Below are positions 3,069 to 51,173 of a stretch of 64,000 nt of DNA, one piece after another. A program made the position numbers and the translations under genes. Below the pieces are notes generated by a model. That model was not told where the DNA came from. It saw nothing but the letters and a program-made list of their open reading frames with translations, and searched no databases. Source of the stretch: a virus (Duplodnaviria > Caudoviricetes); IMG/VR virus record IMGVR_UViG_2588253903_000005, positions 11,653 to 75,652 of that record. The stretch is one strand, 5' to 3'. Positions within the stretch are counted from its first letter, which is position 1; every line of letters begins with the position of its first letter.

Positions 3069-3347
3069 TTAAATCAGCCCATACTGCTCACAGATATATT
3101 CGAGCCATGATGTGTATTCCCTTATCCATTTTTGGGTGGTATTTTTTACCATTTTCCCCTTGCTGTTCATCTTTTTAAGTGACACTTCGGAAAATTTAGT
3201 CCTCTTTTCGTCTAATTTTTCTATCCTTGCAGATACTCTTACATGGTCGTTTACCGCCGTATAAATTCCGTTGTTTTTATCTAAATGCAAAATCAACCTC
3301 TTTCCGTCATAAACATTTACATTGTTTCCGTTTCTTTTTATTTCCAT
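3069..3347 (-). CDS. Hypothetical protein (leftward early operon)
   Basis: 92-aa ORF with purine-rich RBS. Confidence 0.65.
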   Translation of the reverse strand: MEIKRNGNNVNVYDGKRLILHLDKNNGIYTAVNDHVRVSARIEKLDEKRTKFSEVSLKKMNSKGKMVKNTTQKWIREYTSWLEYICEQYGLI

Positions 3348-3447
3348 ATCCTTTTCTTTCTCCCCTTATCCCTGGGGGCTGGGAATTTTGAGAACTCCCG
3401 CCGGGACTTGCACCCGGCTGACCGCTTGACGGTGGTAGTTATGCGGG

Positions 3448-3666
3448 TTAAATGTTAAACATAACGATTTTTCCGTTATCATCGTAGATGTTTCCGCAAG
3501 TTCCCATGATAAAATATTTTCTGCCGTTTTCGATTCCCCTAACAGCGAAATGATACCCTTTTTCTTTTGCTTCTTTTTCGGACAATTCAGAAAAGGTTGT
3601 GTTCTCTCCCAATCCGTCATTGATAAAAAATCTTGTGATTTCCTCTGCATTGTTAAATTTAGCCAT
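3448..3666 (-). CDS. Hypothetical protein (leftward early operon)
   Basis: AGGAGG RBS before MAKFNNAEE. Confidence 0.65.
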   Translation of the reverse strand: MAKFNNAEEITRFFINDGLGENTTFSELSEKEAKEKGYHFAVRGIENGRKYFIMGTCGNIYDDNGKIVMFNI

Positions 3667-4568: not shown

Positions 4569-4659
4569 AATATTTTCCTCCATTTTTATTTGTTCCAACC
4601 CCGGCATTTCTGCCGGACGCTCCCAACTTAATGGACTTTTTAGAGCCGTTGGGACGGCT

Positions 4660-9002: not shown

Positions 9003-9028
9003 GATGCAAAAGACGGAGGAATTTGAAC

Positions 9029-9823
9029 ATGGCTACATACGCATATTACAGAGTGTCAACAAGAACACAGGTAGAGAAGAACAGTACGGACATGCAGAAG
9101 AACGTCGTAAAGGAATATTGCGAAGAAAACGGTCTGGTGCTTGACGGAACATTTGAAGATGACGGAATATCCGGCGCAATGGACGATATGGAGGATAGCA
9201 TAGCGAGAAATGGTCTGATAGAACTTTTCTCAACCACACAAGAGGGTGACACAATCATTGTGCAGAACACATCAAGGTTGTGGCGTTCTGATACGGCAAA
9301 GGTCATTATCCGTAGGGAAATTAAAAAGTGTGGGGCAAACTTAGTAAGTGTTGAACAGCCTAATTATGACATTTACAAGAAAGACCCTAACGACTTTCTA
9401 ATAAACGGTCTTTTGGAGCTGCTTGACGAATACGACAAAATCTCAATCGCTGTCAAACTGGCAAAAGGCAGAAAGGCAAGAGCAAAGACAGGAAACAAAC
9501 CTTGCGGTAATGCTCCGATAGGCTACCGCTGGAACGGAAACAAGATCGAAATTGACTATAACAATCACTTGATTGTACAGGATATATTCAATATGTGTTT
9601 AGAACGCAAAGGGAATTTAAGTCAGATTATGCGTGACTGTGCAGAAAAGGGATATAAGACCACTAGAGGAAAAGATTTCAGCGTACAGGCTATCAAGAAT
9701 ATTCTGACGAATGATTTTTATGTTGGTGTTGTAACCCATGCAGGAAATAAGATAGCAGGAGAACATCAACCGATTATTGAAAAGCCGGTATTTGAAAAAG
9801 TCATTGAGATTTTGAGAGGGTAG
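9029..9823 (+). CDS. Serine recombinase (resolvase catalytic domain plus recombinase domain, 264 aa)
   Basis: YAYYRVST with catalytic Ser, DGISG, SRLWR, APIGY, NILTNDFYVG, GEHQPII; lacks the Zn-ribbon/coiled coil of full large serine integrases. Confidence 0.9.
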   Translation: MATYAYYRVSTRTQVEKNSTDMQKNVVKEYCEENGLVLDGTFEDDGISGAMDDMEDSIARNGLIELFSTTQEGDTIIVQNTSRLWRSDTAKVIIRREIKKCGANLVSVEQPNYDIYKKDPNDFLINGLLELLDEYDKISIAVKLAKGRKARAKTGNKPCGNAPIGYRWNGNKIEIDYNNHLIVQDIFNMCLERKGNLSQIMRDCAEKGYKTTRGKDFSVQAIKNILTNDFYVGVVTHAGNKIAGEHQPIIEKPVFEKVIEILRG

Positions 9824-9832
9824 GTATACGGT

Positions 9833-10189
9833 ATGGTTTATGGGTATGTGAATAGGCGCAAAGGCGAAACAAAAGATTATTTACATGGCAGAGAATTTGA
9901 CGAAATATTTTATCAAGACGGAGCAGAATACGATTTGTCTTTTCTGAAACAAGGAGACACAATAATACTTTGCAAGCTAAAAAGTATAAGCGATAATTTG
10001 AAAGATATTCTCGTATTTGCTCAATACGCATTTGACAACGAGATAGAAGTCCGCTGTATGGATAAAAACGATGACAAATATATTGATTTCATAGATACAA
10101 GTACAGCAATGGGGAAATTGATAATAGGTCTATGGGCAGGAATAAATAGGCTAGACGATGAATACTACAGAAATTCAGAAAATAATTAA
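9833..10189 (+). CDS. Resolvase-fold protein lacking catalytic residues
   Basis: VYGYVNRR, LKQGDTIILCKLKSIS, IDTSTAMGKLII align to resolvase GYARVS, GDVILVKKLDRLGR, ISTDGEMGKMVV. Confidence 0.65.
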   Translation: MVYGYVNRRKGETKDYLHGREFDEIFYQDGAEYDLSFLKQGDTIILCKLKSISDNLKDILVFAQYAFDNEIEVRCMDKNDDKYIDFIDTSTAMGKLIIGLWAGINRLDDEYYRNSENN

Positions 10190-11278: not shown

Positions 11279-11283
11279 ATTTT

Positions 11284-11355
11284 AGGGATATCGCCAAACG
11301 GTAAGGCACAGGACTTTGACTGCTGTATTTCCGGGTTCGAATCCCGGTAGCCCAG
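11284..11355 (+). tRNA. tRNA-Gln(TTG) with stem mismatches; no encoded CCA
   Basis: D arm GCCAAACGGTAAGGC, anticodon arm CAGGA-CTTTGAC-TGCTG, T arm CCGGG-TTCGAAT-CCCGG; mismatches A1:A72, A5:G68, G30:G40. Confidence 0.8.
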
Positions 11356-11403
11356 TTCAGCCGAAAGGCTATATAAAAATTAAAGTTTAGGAGGGATTTG
11401 TCT

Positions 11404-12045
11404 ATGACGACTGAAACCATGACCGTGCATAAGGCTCTGGCAGAATTAAAGCTGCTTGACATCCGGATTGAGAAAGCAATCGCAGAAGGTGTTTACTGCG
11501 TTGCGAACAAACATTCAAACGATAAGATAGGCGGCGTTCCGCTTGATGATTACATTAAAATCATGCAGGGCGGATATGACAAGGCAACTGACTTTATCAA
11601 CCGTCAAACGGCAATAAAACGAGCAGTCACACTTTCCAATGCTGTAACCAAAGTCGAAATTTCTGGCGTGGAATATACAAGAGCAGAAGCCATTTGGATG
11701 AAAAATCACGGAATGGAATTTTGCAAAACACTTATGAATGCTATGCGGAGACAATATGATAAGGCTCAAATGCAAATCAATCTGGAAAACGGAAAAGACC
11801 TTGAACAGAGGGCAGAGCAGTATGTAACCGCAATCTACGGGCAGAAAGAAGGAAAGACAAATACTGCTGACATCGAAAAGGTCAAGGCAGACTTTTTAAA
11901 ATCCAACCAGTACGAACTGGTTGACCCGCTCCACGTCCTTGACAAGATTGAAGATTTGGAGAAGAAAATCAATGATTTCATGGCAGAAGTTGACAGCTCA
12001 TTATCGGTCAGCAACGCCTTAACCGAAATCACGATTGAATATTAA
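11404..12045 (+). CDS. Predominantly helical/coiled-coil hypothetical protein (213 aa) preceding the large ncRNA
   Basis: GGAGG RBS; MTVHKALAELKLLDIRIEKAI...LEDLEKKINDFMAEVDSSLSVSNALTEITIEY is amphipathic. Confidence 0.8.
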   Translation: MTTETMTVHKALAELKLLDIRIEKAIAEGVYCVANKHSNDKIGGVPLDDYIKIMQGGYDKATDFINRQTAIKRAVTLSNAVTKVEISGVEYTRAEAIWMKNHGMEFCKTLMNAMRRQYDKAQMQINLENGKDLEQRAEQYVTAIYGQKEGKTNTADIEKVKADFLKSNQYELVDPLHVLDKIEDLEKKINDFMAEVDSSLSVSNALTEITIEY

Positions 12046-12059
12046 AAATTAAATGAATT

Positions 12060-12460
12060 TTATCCACTGTTTACCGAAAACCCCAAACTACAATTCATAC
12101 GTCTTTTGCAGATACAGACATATGTAAAACAATAAAGAAATCTGCAAACTTCAATGGACGAAGATAATATGAATTGGTCTTGAAAACCAAATTTGCATAA
12201 ACAATGTGTCGGCGGTTCGATTCCGTCCAAGTCTTCGGACTTGTAGCTCAGTCGGGAGAGCGATTGTAAAAACAAAACGCACTGTAAAGATTAAAGAGTA
12301 AAGCTCAAATCTTAAAGCTGAAAGGTCAAAGTTTATTTTCTTCAAAGTTGAAAGAGCAAAGGTAAAAGACAAAAGTTTTACAAAATCCTTGGGAAATGTT
12401 TATTCGGGCTAATTGTAATTGCTGATGGGTTTAACACAAGGCTGGTAAATGGTGGGTTAT
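12060..12460 (+). ncRNA. Putative ~400-nt structured ncRNA of unrecognised family
   Basis: No credible ORF; long-range pairs 12064-75/12444-55, 12078-83/12427-32, 12089-95/12411-17, 12387-91/12437-41; permuted tRNA core; heptamer array. Confidence 0.75.
12283..12375 (+). repeat. 12 heptamers, consensus NNNAAAG
   Basis: TGTAAAG ATTAAAG AGTAAAG CTCAAAT CTTAAAG CTGAAAG GTCAAAG, 9-nt spacer, TTCAAAG TTGAAAG AGCAAAG GTAAAAG ACAAAAG. Confidence 0.85.
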
Positions 12461-12469
12461 ATGAATTAT

Positions 12470-12505
12470 CGGCGGCAGCTTGTTGGTCTCGTTGCCGCCG
12501 GTTTT
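12470..12505 (+). terminator. Strong hairpin with short T run after the ncRNA
   Basis: CGGCGGCAGC/GTTGCCGCCG then GTTTT. Confidence 0.5.
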
Positions 12506-12597
12506 GCAGATATAACCCTAACTGGTAAGGGAACGGTTTGCTAAACCGTCAGTAACCGTCAAATGACGGCGCGTAGGTTCAAGTCCTACTATCTGCG
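12506..12597 (+). tRNA. tRNA-Ser(GCT); no encoded CCA
   Basis: Acceptor GCAGATA/TATCTGC, anticodon arm ACGGT-TTGCTAA-ACCGT, long variable arm, T arm GTAGG-TTCAAGT-CCTAC, G73. Confidence 0.9.
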
Positions 12598-12667
12598 TTA
12601 TGGGGATGGTAAAGTCTATGGGTTGATTCCAAAAATAAACAAACTTTACAAAAAGCATTCCCATTAT

Positions 12668-12759
12668 GCCGACGTACCCAAACGGTTATAAGGGCGCAGT
12701 CTTGAAAACTGATGTGCCATGGAGAACATGGTCTGTGGGTTCAAATCCTACCGTCGGCG
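12668..12759 (+). tRNA. tRNA-Ser(TGA); no encoded CCA
   Basis: Acceptor GCCGACG/CGTCGGC, anticodon loop CTTGAAA (12701-07), long variable arm, T arm GTGGG-TTCAAAT-CCTAC. Confidence 0.9.
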
Positions 12760-13103
12760 TTTAGTGTCGAACATTCGTACCATTTGGCACTCCTTTCACC
12801 CCGTAGCGGAATGCTGTTAAGAGCCTTCGCAAGGCTTGCGGGGATTCGTCAAGGAAAAGACATTAAAACCCGCTTGCCAGAGCGTATAAGTGGCGATACT
12901 AAAGCCCGGCTACTGCTTGAGGGCAATATAAAAAAGAGCAGCGTGTAGATTGGCGGTAAGACGATGCGAATCTCAAATAACCGCATTCTGGATGATGCCC
13001 ACGTCATTGTATAATTGGTGATGCATACTAGTTTGGACAGAATCCGATTGTCAGTAAAGACATGCAAAATCCTATGCAGTCCTCATAGACATAAATTGGA
13101 CGG

Positions 13104-13779: not shown

Positions 13780-14049
13780 CGATCTAAAATCAATTTTAAG
13801 CGATTTTAACCCAACGCCTTAAATTTCCTCAATGAAACATAAAAGAGGGCGATTTGAGGCAAATAGGAGCGTTAGAGAGGTATTTCTGCTAAAAGCATAC
13901 ACCGTTGTTCAAGTCAACGGGGCAGATTTGGCGGTAACTTCGGAAATCGCTACATAAAATCCAACATGAGCGGACAAAAGTGAGAACAAAAACGCTTGAG
14001 GTATAAAAGTGAGTATTGCGTATTCTCACAAAGCAGTATTCGCTTTTAA

Positions 14050-14121
14050 GGCGATATAGCAAAACGGTTAAGGCGGCAGTCTGCAAAACTGCTATTATCA
14101 GTTCGATTCTGATTATCGCCT
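14050..14121 (+). tRNA. tRNA-Cys(GCA); no encoded CCA
   Basis: Acceptor GGCGATA/TATCGCC, anticodon arm GCAGT-CTGCAAA-ACTGC, T arm ATCAG-TTCGATT-CTGAT, U73. Confidence 0.9.
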
Positions 14122-14215
14122 TTAACAACGGGATAGCCCGACGGGGCGAAAAGCAAAACCGTGATTGCCTGTCCGTTGTTTCAACTAATATCACGGGATT
14201 ATCAACATGTAGGTA

Positions 14216-14818: not shown

Positions 14819-14931
14819 TTTAATCTTGGTAAATTCAATAGGCTAGGGTAGCTCCCAAAAAGCGTCCTCCAACGCCTGCCTATTGTTTTTATAAATTTGG
14901 AGGATTAGAAAAATGGATTGGAGGTCATTTT

Positions 14932-21746: not shown

Positions 21747-22949
21747 ATGAGTGATTTAAAAATATTTACAGAAAACATAGAACCGCAGGCATTAAATCAG
21801 ATTTACACGCTGATTAAGCAACCGGCATTTGCGGATTGCAAAGTGCGTATCATGCCTGACGTACACGCCGGAGCTGGATGTGTTATCGGTTTTACTGCTG
21901 ATTTGGGAGATAAGGTAATTCCAAACATCGTCGGAGTGGATATTGGCTGCGGCATGGAAACTGTAGAACTTGGCAACACAGACATAGACCTTGCAAAACT
22001 CGACGAGGTAATCAGAAAATATGTTCCGAATGGCAGAAATGTGCATGAAACAGAAGATAACTTTTCGGAAATCATCATCAATCAGCTTTATTGCGAAGAC
22101 CGCCTAAAAAACGTGGATTGGTTGAAAAGAAGCTGCGGTACGCTTGGCGGAGGAAATCATTTTTGCGAAGTGGACATTGACGATGACGGAAATAAATACC
22201 TTGTCATTCATTCGGGAAGTCGGAACATTGGAAAGCAGGTTGCGGAAATTTATCAGCAGATGGCGATTGACGATTTAAGCGGAGCGAACAGCCTTGAAGA
22301 AGAAACAAAGAAACTGATTGAAGATTACAAACGGACAGGCAGACACAAGGATATTCAGAGAGGGATTGCGGAGTTAAAACGGAAATTTCAGCCGAAAATT
22401 AGTGTGCCAAAAGAATTATCCTATCTGACAGGCGAACACAGGGAAATGTATCTGCACGACATGAAGTTGTGTCAGAAATTCGCAAGTGAAAATAGATACA
22501 GGATTGCAAAAGAAATATCTTATGGCATGGGCTGGGATATAGATAGATTTTCAAATGGATTTGAAACAATCCACAACTACATTGAGCATGACACAAACAT
22601 CGTCCGCAAGGGCGCAATATCGGCGAAAGAGGGCGAAACAGTCCTAATTCCTATCAATATGCGTGACGGCTGTATTATCGGCAGGGGAAAAGGTAATGCA
22701 GACTGGAATTATTCAGCGCCGCATGGGGCAGGACGGATAATGAGCCGTAGCAAAGCAAAAGAAACGGTATCGCTGGAAGAATTTGAACAGTCCATGCAAG
22801 GAATTTATACAACATCTGTTAATCGGTCAACGATTGATGAAAGCCCTATGGCATACAAGCCGATTGAGGAAATTGTAGCGAATATACAAGATACGGTTGA
22901 AATCATGAAGATTATCAAGCCGATTTATAATTTTAAGGCGAGTGAGTGA
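21747..22949 (+). CDS. rtcB: RtcB RNA ligase
   Basis: IMPDVHAG, GVDIGCG, GTLGGGNHF, HSGSR, HNY, RKGA, SAPHGAGR, DESPMAYK. Confidence 0.95.
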   Translation: MSDLKIFTENIEPQALNQIYTLIKQPAFADCKVRIMPDVHAGAGCVIGFTADLGDKVIPNIVGVDIGCGMETVELGNTDIDLAKLDEVIRKYVPNGRNVHETEDNFSEIIINQLYCEDRLKNVDWLKRSCGTLGGGNHFCEVDIDDDGNKYLVIHSGSRNIGKQVAEIYQQMAIDDLSGANSLEEETKKLIEDYKRTGRHKDIQRGIAELKRKFQPKISVPKELSYLTGEHREMYLHDMKLCQKFASENRYRIAKEISYGMGWDIDRFSNGFETIHNYIEHDTNIVRKGAISAKEGETVLIPINMRDGCIIGRGKGNADWNYSAPHGAGRIMSRSKAKETVSLEEFEQSMQGIYTTSVNRSTIDESPMAYKPIEEIVANIQDTVEIMKIIKPIYNFKASE

Positions 22950-39163: not shown

Positions 39164-42100
39164 GTGGCAAGAATGGCAACGATAGACAGATTGGATATAC
39201 AAATAGAAGGTTCTGCACAAAAAGCAAATGTCGCAATAAATGACCTTATAAAAAATCTCGACAGACTTGCCAATTCCTTAAAAATAGACACAAGCGGATT
39301 AGAGAAAATCGGAAAATCTTTGAATTTAAGTGGCATTGATAAGGCTGCTAAAAATATGCAATCCCAAACGCAGAAAGTATCAAAATCCCTGTCTCAAATT
39401 ACGGAGCAGTACAAGGATTTGGGCAAAGGATTTGAAATAAAAGGCTCTACGCAACAGATACAGAAGCAAATTGACAGCCTTACAAACAAACTTGCAAATG
39501 CAAAACTGGCGAAAGATGATTTTGAAGCGTCCGGGAAGGCCAATTTAGGTGGTTACGAAACAGCAGTTAAAAATGTAATAAAGTATACAAACCAGATTGA
39601 AAGCCTGAAAAAGCAACTTGAGGGATTGCAGACAGCACAGCCGAAACTTGATTTCAATGTAGCTGGCGCGGAAAGCCAAACAAAATATCTAGTTGAATAC
39701 AAAAAGCAATTAATAGATTTCAAAAATGATATGAAATCCATAGGTGATGTTTATGGCGGGTTGCAGAATGTTCCAAAAGGAGGACTAGATACTCTAATTC
39801 AAAATTTAAAGCAATCCATAGAAGAATTAAAGCAATCCTACCCGCAGGCAACGAATGTTATTTCCGCATTTGAAAAAGAGTTGCAAAAGCTACAAGGTAT
39901 TTCTTCTGGACTGACAAAAGAACCAATTAGAGCCAATATTGATACAAGCTCTATTGACAAAGTAAGTGAAAAAATAGCAGAGCTAAAAAACAGGTTTGAA
40001 AAAGTTGGATCAGATTTTAAGTTTACCGGGAATTTTGAACAGTTAAATATTGAAATAGAAAAAGTTTATTCCAAGCTGAACGAATTAAGAACCAAAGAAC
40101 AGGAAATGATTTCTGCCGGACAGGTAAATACATCTGGATTTGAACAGTTGCAGGAATCACTTGCAAGAGTTGGAAATAAGTTCGGAATAATGCAGGATTT
40201 AAGGGACAGAACAGAAGCATTTAACCAATCCTTGCAACAATTAAGAGTTCCAGAAATCCGAGAAGAAAATCTTACAAAACTTCAAAATTCCTTAAGAAAA
40301 ACAGAAGCAGACACAGAAAAGCTAAGAACAAAACTTTCTAATGCAATAACAATGGGAAGGATTGTTCCAAACATAGACGACAGCGGATTCCGAAAACTTA
40401 CGGAGCAAATTGCGTTATCAGAAAAACAGGCAGAAGCATTAAGGCAGAAAATACAGGAAGTGGGAGGCGATACAAGCGGAACCGGAAGCATAATGGACAG
40501 GCTGAAATCTTCTCTGTCAAATGTTTCGAGCCAGTCAAGCAAAACATCTTCTGCGACAAACATATTATCAAAAAATATAAAAAACCTTTCCTCAACAATG
40601 AGCGGATTCAGCAAGTCAGCAGGAAAAGCGGTCACAGGGCTGAAATCATTCGCAAGACAAGCATTGTCTGCTATGGGGATATATCTTGGGGTTTATGGGG
40701 CGGTAAGGGGGCTTAAATCATCGTTAGAAAGCTCCATGAATTACATAGAAATCCTTAATTATTTCAATGCCGCATTTGGACAGGTGGCAGAAAAGGCAGA
40801 TTACAGTAAGTTTGAAGAAATGGGATATGATTCAGCAGAAGCATATTACAATTCTTTTTCTGAAAGGGCAAAAGAATTAACAGAAAAAATGTCCGGGTTT
40901 ACAATGAACGAAAGCGGGATGTTGGAATCCGGAGGAATGAAAAGCCTTGGAATTGACCCTACGAAACTTATGAACTATCAGGCGATGTTTGGGCAGATGT
41001 CTAGCTCTATGGGAGCGACAAGCGAAAATGCATTAAGGCTGTCAACAGTCCTTACGGAAATTGGGGCTGACCTGGCTTCTGTAAAGAACATGAAGTTTGA
41101 AAAAGTCTGGAACGATATGGCTTCCGGGCTTGCGGGAATGAGCCGGACACTGGATAAGTATGGGGCAAATATCCGAAACGTGAACTTGCAGCAGAAGTTA
41201 AACGAACTTGGAATCAGTGCAAACATATCCGCATTAAACCAGAATGACAAGGCTCTTTTACGTACAATTATTCTTCTTGACAGTACGAGATATGCATGGG
41301 GTGATTTGGCAAAAACAATCAATCAACCTGCTAACCAGTTAAGGTTGCTCCAATCAAATTTCAGCAACCTTGGGAGGGCTATAGGAAACATATTTTTGCC
41401 AATCGTTGCAAAGGTTTTACCATACATAAATATGCTTGTGCAGGCATTGACGAGGCTTGCAGAATGGCTTGTAAAACTCCTTGGATTCGAGGGATTCGAC
41501 TGGGGAGGTGGCGGGGGCGGAAACTCTACCCCGGATATACTTGGTGACATATACGACAATGCAGAGGATGCATCTGGCGCATTGGATAAAGTATCTGAAT
41601 CCGCAAAAAAAGCGAAGGCAGGTCTTAGGGGATTTGATGAGTTAAAAACAATCAACATGCCAGAATCCAATGAACCAGACGATGGAGCAGGGGGAGCGGG
41701 AACTGGAGGAATTGACAGCGGACTTCTGCAAGGAGCATTAGATAGCATACTGGACGAATATCAGGCGGCATGGGACAAGGCTTTTTCCGAAATGGAAAAC
41801 AGGGCTAATACATTCGCTGATAACGTGGCGAAAGCGTTTAAAGAAAAAGGTCTCTATGGTGTTGGGGAATATTTCAGTAAAAGCATAACAAGCGCATTGG
41901 AGAGCATACCCTGGGATTCTGTATATGAGGGAGCAAGAATGTTTGGAAGCGGTTTAGCTTCCTTTTTAAATGGGTTGATTTCCCCGGATCTGTTCGGTGC
42001 ACTTGGGAAAACGATTGCAGGCGCGTTGAACACAGCGTTGCATTTCCTTGATTCATTTGGGGAAACATTTGATTTTACCAATTTCGGCGTTTCCATAGGA

Positions 42101-47028: not shown

Positions 47029-47244
47029 TAGACAGGAGGATTCTTTCCATACCTTTAATGAAAATTGGTGTATGGAATTTAGTTTATTATAAAGAAAAAT
47101 ACAGAAGAGCTGGCATACCTAACTATGAAGAAAAGCTTGTTAATGTTGGTTACATCTGGGGATAGGCTGACGAGCCGAAAAGTACAAGCCTTAGTACCTG
47201 CCCCGGTTTGACATAAGGCAGTTTGCGGAAAGGCGGTAAAGAGC

Positions 47245-50384: not shown

Positions 50385-51173
50385 ATGAAAAAATATAAAA
50401 ATGTAATTATGATTTCTATACTTTTAGCATTGCATATTTCTTTAAATGTAAAAGCAGAATGCATTCATGAATGGACGGAATGGAAAACACTTATAGAGCC
50501 TACTTGTTCCGAAGAAGGGTACCAAACAAGAGAATGTTTGAAGTGCTATGAAAGCGATAGTAGATACATACCAGAAACTGGTATTCATACATGGACAGAA
50601 TGGAAGGCAGATGATGTTTTATGCGCTGATGGAAAATACACGAGGGAATGTAAAGAATGTTATAAAACGGAAACAAAATTTAGGAAAGGTAATGGAAACC
50701 ATAGATATTCTAAATGGTATGTAATTACAGAAGCAAATTGCACAAATAATGGAAAAAAAGAAAGAGAGTGCCTGGATTGCTTTTATTATGAATATGAAAT
50801 TATTCCATCAAATTCTTCCCTGCATGAATGGTCGAGTTGGAGTTCTATAGTTTATGCAACAGCATTAAAAACTGGAAAATCAGAACGGGAATGTTATGTA
50901 TGTCACACAGTTGAAGTGAAAAAAACAAAAAAACTTAAAGCTAAAATAACCCTTTCTTTAAAAAAGAAAATTTTGAAAGTTGGAAAGTCCTTCACGCTTG
51001 GGTTAAAGAGATATACATATGGAGATAAAATTTCTAAGTTTTTGTCTAGCAATAAAAAAGTTGCTACAGTAAATAAAAAAGGAAGGGTTACTGCAAAAAA
51101 GAAAGGGAAAGCAAAGATAACAGTTAGGATGAAAAGCGGATGTAAAGCAACGTGCAATGTAACAGTAAAATAG
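50385..51173 (+). CDS. Secreted protein with Cys/Trp repeats and C-terminal Big_2 domain
   Basis: Repeated H.W..W.....TC..G...REC..C; SSNKKVATVNKKGRVTAKKKGKAKITV. Confidence 0.75.
   Translation: MKKYKNVIMISILLALHISLNVKAECIHEWTEWKTLIEPTCSEEGYQTRECLKCYESDSRYIPETGIHTWTEWKADDVLCADGKYTRECKECYKTETKFRKGNGNHRYSKWYVITEANCTNNGKKERECLDCFYYEYEIIPSNSSLHEWSSWSSIVYATALKTGKSERECYVCHTVEVKKTKKLKAKITLSLKKKILKVGKSFTLGLKRYTYGDKISKFLSSNKKVATVNKKGRVTAKKKGKAKITVRMKSGCKATCNVTVK

Follow-up and report, generated by a model that had tools for sequence, protein, structure and literature searches.

The locus studied here raises the question of whether a phage gene and the long non-coding stretch behind it belong together and, if they do, what the pair may be for. 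It lies in a 64-kb stretch of DNA (the window) from a 75.6-kb gut provirus. Within the tRNA cluster of this provirus, and with all of its parts on the + strand, is a cassette that consists of a gene for a protein of 213 amino acids (11404-12045) and, 16 nucleotides (nt) beyond its stop codon, a complete non-coding RNA of 397 nt (12062-12458). A preliminary description of the same DNA had taken the RNA to be undescribed and co-transcribed with the gene, and had proposed that the two may form a ribonucleoprotein which would counter tRNA-targeting defence or scaffold translation-related factors. The evidence below gives good support to the view that gene and RNA are one conserved two-part module whose linkage is obligate in both directions. 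The module is widespread, almost wholly uncatalogued, and matches no characterised system.

Linkage of the gene and the RNA

The linkage holds when a search is started from either partner. A 26-nt pattern taken from the 5' block of the RNA retrieved 82 metagenome loci, 78 of which were real, and a gene for a homologue of the protein (51-92% identity) lay 5' of the RNA in every one of the 78. The conserved 3' block of the RNA followed 300-457 nt downstream in all 69 loci that had enough flank. A 14-nt DNA pattern scanned against viral contigs gave mostly chance matches and was not used, and a 24-nt pattern re-found only two known contigs. When the search was based on the protein, the RNA was found downstream and on the same strand in 19 of 19 loci in bacterial genomes (from Lachnospiraceae, Blautia, Ruminococcus, Flavonifractor, Flintibacter and other hosts), where it scored 47-175 bits with a model built only from the 3' half of the RNA in the window's clade, and downstream again in 5 of 5 viral contigs. 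The 5' block, the 3' block and the helix that closes the RNA end to end, P1, were present in all relatives.

All eight distant phages examined carry both gene and RNA, and in these eight an unannotated gap of 360-600 nt follows the gene. Full-length matches to the window-clade model scored 58.7 bits in Lactococcus phage AM1, 55.3 in SSE121, 47.7 in Klebsiella phage VLCpiM5a and 47.0 in T5, and 33.8, 28.7 and 26.8 bits in phiPsa381, Vibrio phage Chloris and phage G, respectively. The full module of T5 (AY543070, reverse strand, 3146-3508) occupies the unannotated 363-nt gap after T5.085; a separate RNA, annotated as 'RNAX, stable RNA with unknown functions', lies about 1.6 kb beyond it. The Erwinia and Aeromonas RNAs were read by eye. 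In Erwinia phage Bosolaphorus a hairpin splits the heptad array described below, and P1, the CGAA junction, the PK3 pseudoknot and a tRNA-like module are readable. Aeromonas phage LAh_9 has the complete RNA 470 nt beyond the gene, and the annotated open reading frame (ORF) of 38 codons that overlaps it, gp026, is probably spurious. At the same locus (2137-2605, 2742-2858), the 470-nt spacer has a partial STnc100-like match, and a ProQ-like gene stands just 5' of the partner gene.

Co-transcription of gene and RNA is almost certain given the distance between them, which is 14-36 nt in nearly all of the 78 metagenome loci, and no promoter-like site was found between the two. That the region is transcribed, as had also been proposed, agrees with metatranscriptome contigs that hold the RNA, although such contigs may include DNA. 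Two runs of one mouse-gut study gave contigs identical to the window over 12076-12360 and 12270-12471, and a contig of another study ends at 12458, just beyond the end of the 12-bp core of P1 (12455). The two runs had no contigs on the ORF, which is no evidence of absence. We take these contigs as a weak sign of a stable RNA. In a relative from a mouse-gut metatranscriptome, 415 extra letters stand right after the 3' end of the RNA (window 12455-12467) and are possibly a further cassette. Among the 19 genome loci, tRNA genes occur within 4 kb in 17, and in seven a tRNA starts only 3-45 nt after the RNA, suggesting that 5' processing of the tRNA sets the 3' end of the RNA.

Structure of the RNA

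The RNA is not wholly undescribed, because its first 84 nt (12063-12146) match the Rfam family RAGATH-27 (RF03100) over the full model (positions 1-86 of 86) with 92.1 bits against a cut-off of 76.1. This portion amounts to about one fifth of the 397 nt, and for the remaining four fifths, which are uncatalogued, the earlier claim stands. Dulem virus 39 and another relative share the full-model match with the window and are also above the cut-off. The RAGATH-27 model comprises one hairpin (Hb) and 46 conserved 5' bases that it leaves unpaired; here those bases form the 5' strands of helices P1, P2, P3 and Ha and pair with bases as far as 390 nt downstream. The model does not cover the whole RNA, the catalogued motif has no partner protein, and it misses the T5-type versions; Rfam gave no match to the core in T5 or in seven other phages. 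RAGATH-27 is a fragment of an RNA five times larger. Beyond RAGATH-27 and tRNAs, the Rfam search of the window region returned only a sub-threshold YrlA or tRNA-Sec match, and at E<=10 with permissive filters it matched neither GOLLD nor ROOL over 11900-12700, in line with the preliminary description, which had recognised neither. We also considered and rejected a tmRNA: ARAGORN called none in the window, neither a T arm nor CCA comes after P1, and the heptad array contains stops in all frames. No paper was found on RAGATH-27 / RF03100, T5.085 or phrog_1491 in a literature search that did not extend to the supplements of the paper on 224 candidate structured RNAs. 'DIP1984' occurred once, in an unrelated paper, there was none for DUF6847 or RAGATH-19, and broader queries on phages, T5 and non-coding RNAs returned nothing relevant.

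The core of the RNA has eight helices with support from covariation, arranged as two pseudoknotted domains that are made from its 5' and 3' ends. The helices were derived in this analysis from an alignment of 26 non-redundant related sequences, to which the pairing figures that follow refer. The nested pairings noticed earlier are all in place and belong to the three outer helices. P1 (12062-12076/12443-12457), which includes CCACTGTTTACC (12064-75) and GGTAAATGGTGG (12444-55), has 97% of its cells paired, with CG/UA and UA/CG swaps. P2, formed by AAACCC (12078-12083) and GGGTTT (12427-12432), is 89% paired with both sides changed at 2 pairs, and P3, formed by TACAATT (12089-12095) and AATTGTA (12411-12417), is 98% paired with both sides changed at 4 of 7. 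The 5' domain is an H-type pseudoknot (12096-12146) in which Ha (12096-12104/12116-12124; 92% paired, 8 of 9 pairs changed on both sides) crosses Hb (12107-12113/12140-12146; 83% paired), the latter being the TGCAGAT/ATCTGCA pairing of the preliminary description. The 3' domain (12387-12441) is made of PK3a (CCTTG, 12387-12391, with CAAGG, 12437-12441), PK3b (TGTT, 12397-12400, with AACA, 12433-12436) and the hairpin H4 (about 12404-12409/12421-12425), which are 99%, 85% and 84% paired, respectively; the register of H4 is shifted by 1 nt in the subclade of the window. The crossing helix predicted earlier is thus present: PK3a, PK3b and H4 each cross both P2 and P3, and the loop of H4 contains the 3' strand of P3.

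Over the whole core, helices are 83-99% paired compared with 33-42% when the partners are slid, and 41 pairs are changed on both sides. The covariation score was 0.251 versus 0.136 in shuffles, and none of 500 shuffles reached 0.251; with the RNA following the gene in all loci examined, this bears out the expectation of a conserved, covarying element downstream of the homologs. For the 3' domain alone, an alignment of 34 sequences that includes T5 and other distant phages was 91% paired (slid controls, 35-44%), with a covariation of 0.578 versus 0.166. A closing P1 duplex was found in 24 of 24 lineages despite quite different sequences, and the z-score of the minimum free energy of the region is -4.35. 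The conserved U-G and G-U pairs of P1 are valid only on the + strand, and they therefore fix the strand of the RNA as +. The invariant unpaired bases of the core are CGAAAAC and GGCU, the latter followed by the 3' strand of P1. The final 37 nt, from 12421 to 12457, are taken up almost continuously by the 3' strands of H4, P2, PK3b, PK3a and P1, and therefore a single long coaxial stack is the probable shape of the core.

Within the loop that the core closes are a variable domain and an array of about 100 nt made of twelve phased units. The 7-nt periodicity noticed earlier is exact and consists of 7 + 5 units. Seven W-U-Y-A-A-A-G heptads in exact 7-nt register make up the first block (12283-12331; units ending at 12289, 12296 and so on to 12331), and after a U-rich spacer of 9 nt (12332-12340) five more follow in the second (12341-12375; units ending at 12347 to 12375). 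The profile of 312 aligned units reads W, U (0.63), Y (0.87), A4 (0.99), A5 (0.98), A6 (0.90) and G7 (0.75). A profile of three such units matches in the 64-kb window only within the array, at 6 positions versus 0.1 expected. The arrays of T5, SSE121 and the Klebsiella and Pseudomonas phages are about 11-15 heptad lengths long, and the architecture with an array of about twelve units persists while protein identity falls to about 30%. A heptad regulon in the phage was considered and rejected, as the only site besides the array was a two-unit chance match within a large ORF (39798-39811); a weak match to the RNA model at 50841-50998 proved to be an A-rich stretch in a coding sequence.

The variable domain (12147-12279) contains a hairpin (12149-12152/12160-12163), an anticodon-like hairpin (12174-12190) and a tRNA-like module, so that both the anticodon stem-loop and the permuted tRNA core of the preliminary description were recovered. 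The anticodon-like hairpin, which has been added in some lineages, has a stem of 12174-12178/12186-12190 and the loop CUUGAAA (CTTGAAA in the DNA); the tRNA-Ser(UGA) encoded downstream has the same anticodon loop. The tRNA-like module is a permuted mimic of the tRNA elbow (12201-12267) with a closing stem (12201-12205/12263-12267), a T arm (12211-12215/12223-12227), an acceptor-like hairpin capped by UUCG (12228-12233/12238-12243) and a D arm (12246-12249/12258-12261). RNAalifold recovered the T arm, a capped stem of 7 bp and the D arm, with 9 compensated pairs. In the order of its T arm, capped acceptor-like hairpin and D arm, and in being joined to the flanking RNA at the position of the anticodon stem, the module has the permuted layout of YrlA. 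However, the match to YrlA (RF02553) is partial (12203-12265, model positions 23-85 only) and scores 36.3 bits against a cut-off of 69, the 75.6-kb provirus gave no match to Ro/TROVE (PF05731) in a search in which control genomes did match, the module is optional here, and the conserved core and heptad array have no counterpart in YrlA or Y RNA.

The elbow is present in the window and in 7 of 16 other representative lineages, and Erwinia phage Bosolaphorus carries the same tRNA-like module (44.5 bits). Dulem virus 39, the closest relative with 78% nucleotide identity, is without the variable domain and its tRNA-like insert. Length and content of the domain differ by lineage, and other lineages have unrelated inserts. 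In one contig of a metagenome-assembled genome (4640-5450), 630 nt separate the gene from the start of the 3' half of the RNA, so that either the variable domain there holds a large insert or something lies between gene and RNA. The window also encodes an RtcB-type RNA ligase (21747-22949, +; phrog_1075, E 1e-130). In Salmonella, RtcB shares an operon with rsr and yrlA. Here RtcB does not track with the tRNA-like insert, because Dulem virus 39 has an RtcB and no insert. The apparent tie of the gene and its RNA to tRNA is limited to their genomic context and to this optional insert that Dulem virus 39 lacks.

The partner protein, its leader and the surroundings

The 213-residue helical ORF noticed earlier belongs to the T5.085 / phrog_1491 family (phrog_1491, E 3e-50), which comprises 3057 cluster representatives at E<=1e-3 and 742 phage records, among them T5 (T5.085), Salmonella, Klebsiella, Pseudomonas, Vibrio, Erwinia, Lactococcus and Aeromonas phages and Bacillus phage G. 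No second copy of the gene was found in the genome. The protein is mostly helical and acidic (isoelectric point [pI] 5.4), and AlphaFold2 modelled it with a mean pLDDT (predicted local distance difference test) of 84 as a bundle of long helices with a four-stranded sheet contributed by the N-terminus, a hairpin at 83-92 and the C-terminus. Conservation is concentrated in the motifs NKHSNxK (35-41), SNAxT (78-82), KNHG (100-103) and LSxSNAxT...Y (200-213), with the conserved residues K36, H37, S38, N39 and K41, S78, N79 and T82, K100, N101 and H102, and S201, S203, N204, T207 and Y213. H9 is invariant, and H37 and H102, beside K36 and K100, are conserved in at least 90% of 15 aligned sequences. 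Since these motifs lie in or beside the four modelled strands, the conserved residues would cluster as a head at one end of a rod-shaped protein.

Database searches gave the protein no function. Pfam, NCBIfam and PADLOC returned no family apart from a chance-level Cas8a fragment, a sequence search of the PDB found no match, and Foldseek against the PDB returned nothing at E<=0.001. In BFVD only uncharacterised phage proteins were matched, and in the ESM Atlas only unnamed clusters; DUF6847 appeared in the latter only as a lead at 0.86, and neither a DIP1984-like domain nor DUF6847 had a Pfam match. PHROG labels phrog_1491 'tail fiber protein', and members of the family are often so labelled in GenBank. 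The position of the gene among early and tRNA genes gives this label no support.

Heptads also occur in the leader of the gene. The leader between tRNA-Gln and the ORF is 47 nt long, and two tandem heptad-like units, TATAAAA ATTAAAG (11372-11385), end 4 nt 5' of the GGAGG ribosome-binding site (11390-11394). We scored the best two-unit heptad match within 50 nt 5' of the start codon in 22 lineages, including T5 and the Klebsiella, Pseudomonas and Erwinia phages, and in 110 control leaders from the same loci. The leader of the window scored 10.7 bits, a level reached by 3.6% of the controls, and the medians were 10.8 bits for the lineages and -2.2 for the controls (Mann-Whitney p 7e-11). Sixteen of the 22 lineages were above the 95th percentile of the controls, the units abut the ribosome-binding site, and tandem leader heptads recurred in the new genome loci. 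Such a location is compatible with autorepression of translation by a protein that recognises heptads.

The cassette is flanked by tRNA genes called by ARAGORN: tRNA-Gln(UUG) directly 5' (11283-11356; 44.9 bits with the Rfam tRNA model), and tRNA-Ser(GCU) (12505-12598) and tRNA-Ser(UGA) (12667-12760) on the 3' side. The GC hairpin noticed earlier at 12470-12500 is present; it has 8 bp and is followed by GUUUUG, the short U run of which overlaps the next tRNA, and from its sequence it appears terminator-like. A terminator scan made no call on it. The closest genomic relative of the locus is a Lachnospiraceae metagenome-assembled genome with a protein identity of 96%. Farther away, a replication-initiator-like gene lies 2.5 kb 3' of the RNA, and a pair of ORFs of 266 and 118 amino acids at 9023-10189 (+), the first resembling a serine recombinase and the second of the same family, may be a split or frameshifted integrase/invertase. 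Three int-alpA RNA motifs (43-49 bits) were found at 14126-14196, 14836-14903 and 47155-47219 (+), one of them immediately 3' of tRNA-Cys (14049-14122). Self-cleaving ribozymes occur in two of the genomes. The window has a Pistol ribozyme in its leftward early region (4594-4659, -; 54 bits, cut-off 34.5), and as the phage encodes RtcB, the ends made by this ribozyme could be ligated. In Dulem virus 39 a Hammerhead type II ribozyme (59 bits) stands at 483-547 of its sequence, about 3.5 kb 5' of the module, which fits the RAGATH naming for association with ribozyme-linked genes.

Possible roles of the module and its relation to known systems

In our preferred reading, for which we consider the chances to be about even, the protein and the RNA assemble into a defined particle on the heptad array. 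In such a particle the conserved head, rich in Lys, His, Asn and Ser, would read one heptad per subunit or per dimer, and the array, with about twelve sites, would thereby set the stoichiometry, akin to the TRAP or HutP rings that read phased triplets. Free protein would bind the two leader heptads at the ribosome-binding site and turn off its own translation, much as CsrA does. The cassette would be cut from a polycistronic tRNA transcript, with RNase P cleavage of the next tRNA setting the 3' end of the RNA, and the variable domain, with its YrlA-type elbow mimic and anticodon-like hairpin, could be an exchangeable adaptor that docks the particle on tRNA-binding machinery. By its context, the biological role of the module would lie in tRNA or translation biology during infection. 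A wider proposal, which is tentative and seems to us possible rather than probable, is that the module represents an unrecognised class of phage ribonucleoprotein in which a knotted RNA serves as a ruler, twelve phased heptads template an assembly of fixed size, and exchangeable adaptors, some of them mimics of the tRNA elbow, direct the particle to the machinery of translation or of tRNA. Particles of this class would then occur in hundreds of phages, T5 being one, as well as in prophage tRNA arrays.

Several observations weigh against a particle of this kind. The protein family is acidic (pI 5.2-6.4) and its structure matches no known RNA-binding fold; the best solved structure, 3kdq_A, an uncharacterised Corynebacterium protein, was matched over 151 of 152 residues (root-mean-square deviation 7.8) with a Z of 9.6, a level common among helical bundles. 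The heptads drift in the Vibrio, Bacillus G, Lactococcus and Aeromonas phages (UUAAG, AUAG, UCAAG), so that a single recognition code is not established. The 22 leaders come from related lineages and are not independent, A/U-rich tracts 5' of ribosome-binding sites are common enhancers and the leader signal may therefore have another cause, and covariation between base 7 of the leader and array heptads was not significant (rho 0.27, p 0.19). Finally, the evidence from RNA libraries consists of assembled contigs; these may derive in part from DNA and give no information on ends or levels.

The same observations can be read in other ways. The RNA might act alone, self-assembling or catalytic like ROOL, GOLLD, OLE or a ribozyme, with the protein as a co-expressed helper or a syntenic neighbour. 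An elaborate core with two pseudoknotted domains and invariant unpaired CGAAAAC and GGCU would suit such a role, as would the acidity of the protein, and the RAGATH series is defined by association with self-cleaving ribozymes, of which this phage has one, the Pistol. We nevertheless regard it as unlikely, since gene and RNA adjoin in an unbroken series of about 100 loci that spans host phyla and extends to proteins of 30% identity, which is rare for plain synteny in mosaic phage genomes; in addition, heptads are found in the gene's leader as well, and an unpaired, A-rich array of 100 nt is an unlikely part of an RNA-only fold. Somewhat less likely again is that a host factor with an affinity for single-stranded A-rich RNA (S1/30S, Hfq or an RNase) uses the array as a landing pad or is sponged up by it, and that the leader units are ordinary enhancers. 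The array is unpaired and A-rich, A-rich leaders do enhance translation, and the partner protein is without an RNA-binding signature. However, the module is shared by Bacillota prophages and by phages that infect Enterobacteria, Pseudomonas and Vibrio, hosts that differ in their S1, Hfq and RNase sets, a sponge needs neither a strict 7-nt phase nor a near-constant number of units, and the obligate partner gene would be left unexplained.

A system resembling type III toxin-antitoxins, in which the protein is an endoribonuclease for U-Y-A-A-A-G with catalytic His and Lys residues, the array is its decoy, inhibitor or a precursor of 7-nt products, and cleavage of the leader provides feedback, appears improbable to us. 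It would account for a repeat RNA that adjoins its protein and for the invariant H9 and the conserved H37 and H102 beside K36 and K100, and AAA-G is a cleavage context of some mRNA interferases. The protein, though, does not resemble ToxN, AbiQ, HEPN or any model in PADLOC, gene and RNA stand in the opposite order to those of ToxIN, the units are of 7 nt and not folded repeats of about 36 nt, and metatranscriptome contigs span many units uncut. Slightly more doubtful still is a cis-acting 3' untranslated region that protects the mRNA from 3' exonucleases or controls translation after excision from the tRNA transcript. Such a role could explain the gap of 14-36 nt without a promoter-like site and the flanking tRNAs, but a simple hairpin would suffice for it, the RNA is 470 nt from the gene in Aeromonas phage LAh_9, and the two RNA runs had contigs on the RNA and none on the ORF. 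We give hardly any credence to an element that acts at the level of DNA, such as origin iterons or a packaging or recombination site. Short direct repeats are iteron-like and a replication-initiator-like gene is found 2.5 kb downstream; yet compensatory changes keep the RNA helices, including G-U pairs that would be A-C on the other strand, a phase of 7 bp is unlike the helical repeat of DNA, and the strand relative to the gene is constant.

A structured RNA of about 300-460 nt and its obligate protein thus stand unannotated in hundreds of sequenced phages. Among these are T5, the Vequintavirinae, jumbo phages of Erwinia, 949-type phages of Lactococcus and many gut prophages, and GenBank records show the RNA as an empty gap or as spurious small ORFs. 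An orphan Rfam motif hereby gains a testable partner and a tractable model, T5 in E. coli. The module may point to a new means by which phages manage tRNAs or translation, and to a natural RNA by which a protein assembly is measured.

Each of the known systems that come closest shares some features with this module. GOLLD and ROOL are likewise large, conserved, pseudoknotted phage RNAs beside tRNA genes, and GOLLD can carry embedded tRNAs, but they have neither an obligate partner gene nor a heptad array. ToxIN also places a protein gene next to a tandem-repeat RNA thought to bind several copies of the protein; there, however, the gene order is reversed and the units are about 36 nt compared with 7 nt here, and the present protein has no ToxN/AbiQ-like fold or PADLOC match and its module occurs in virulent phages such as T5. 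CsrA with CsrB/RsmZ resembles it in having many copies of a short motif in one RNA and further copies at the protein's own ribosome-binding site. The GGA motifs of that system, in contrast, are unphased and lie in hairpin loops, CsrA is unrelated to the partner protein, no further target sites were found in this phage, and gene and RNA are here one transcription unit. The binding of TRAP to the trp leader and of HutP to hut mRNA provides the model in which each unit is read by one subunit: short, purine-rich motifs, fixed in number, are spaced evenly along unpaired RNA, and those of HutP also have a 7-nt period. TRAP and HutP are small beta or alpha/beta proteins with no relation in sequence or fold to the 213-residue helical rod, and their arrays stand in the leaders of regulated mRNAs, whereas the array described here, to which we infer that the partner protein would bind, is carried by a dedicated, knotted RNA.

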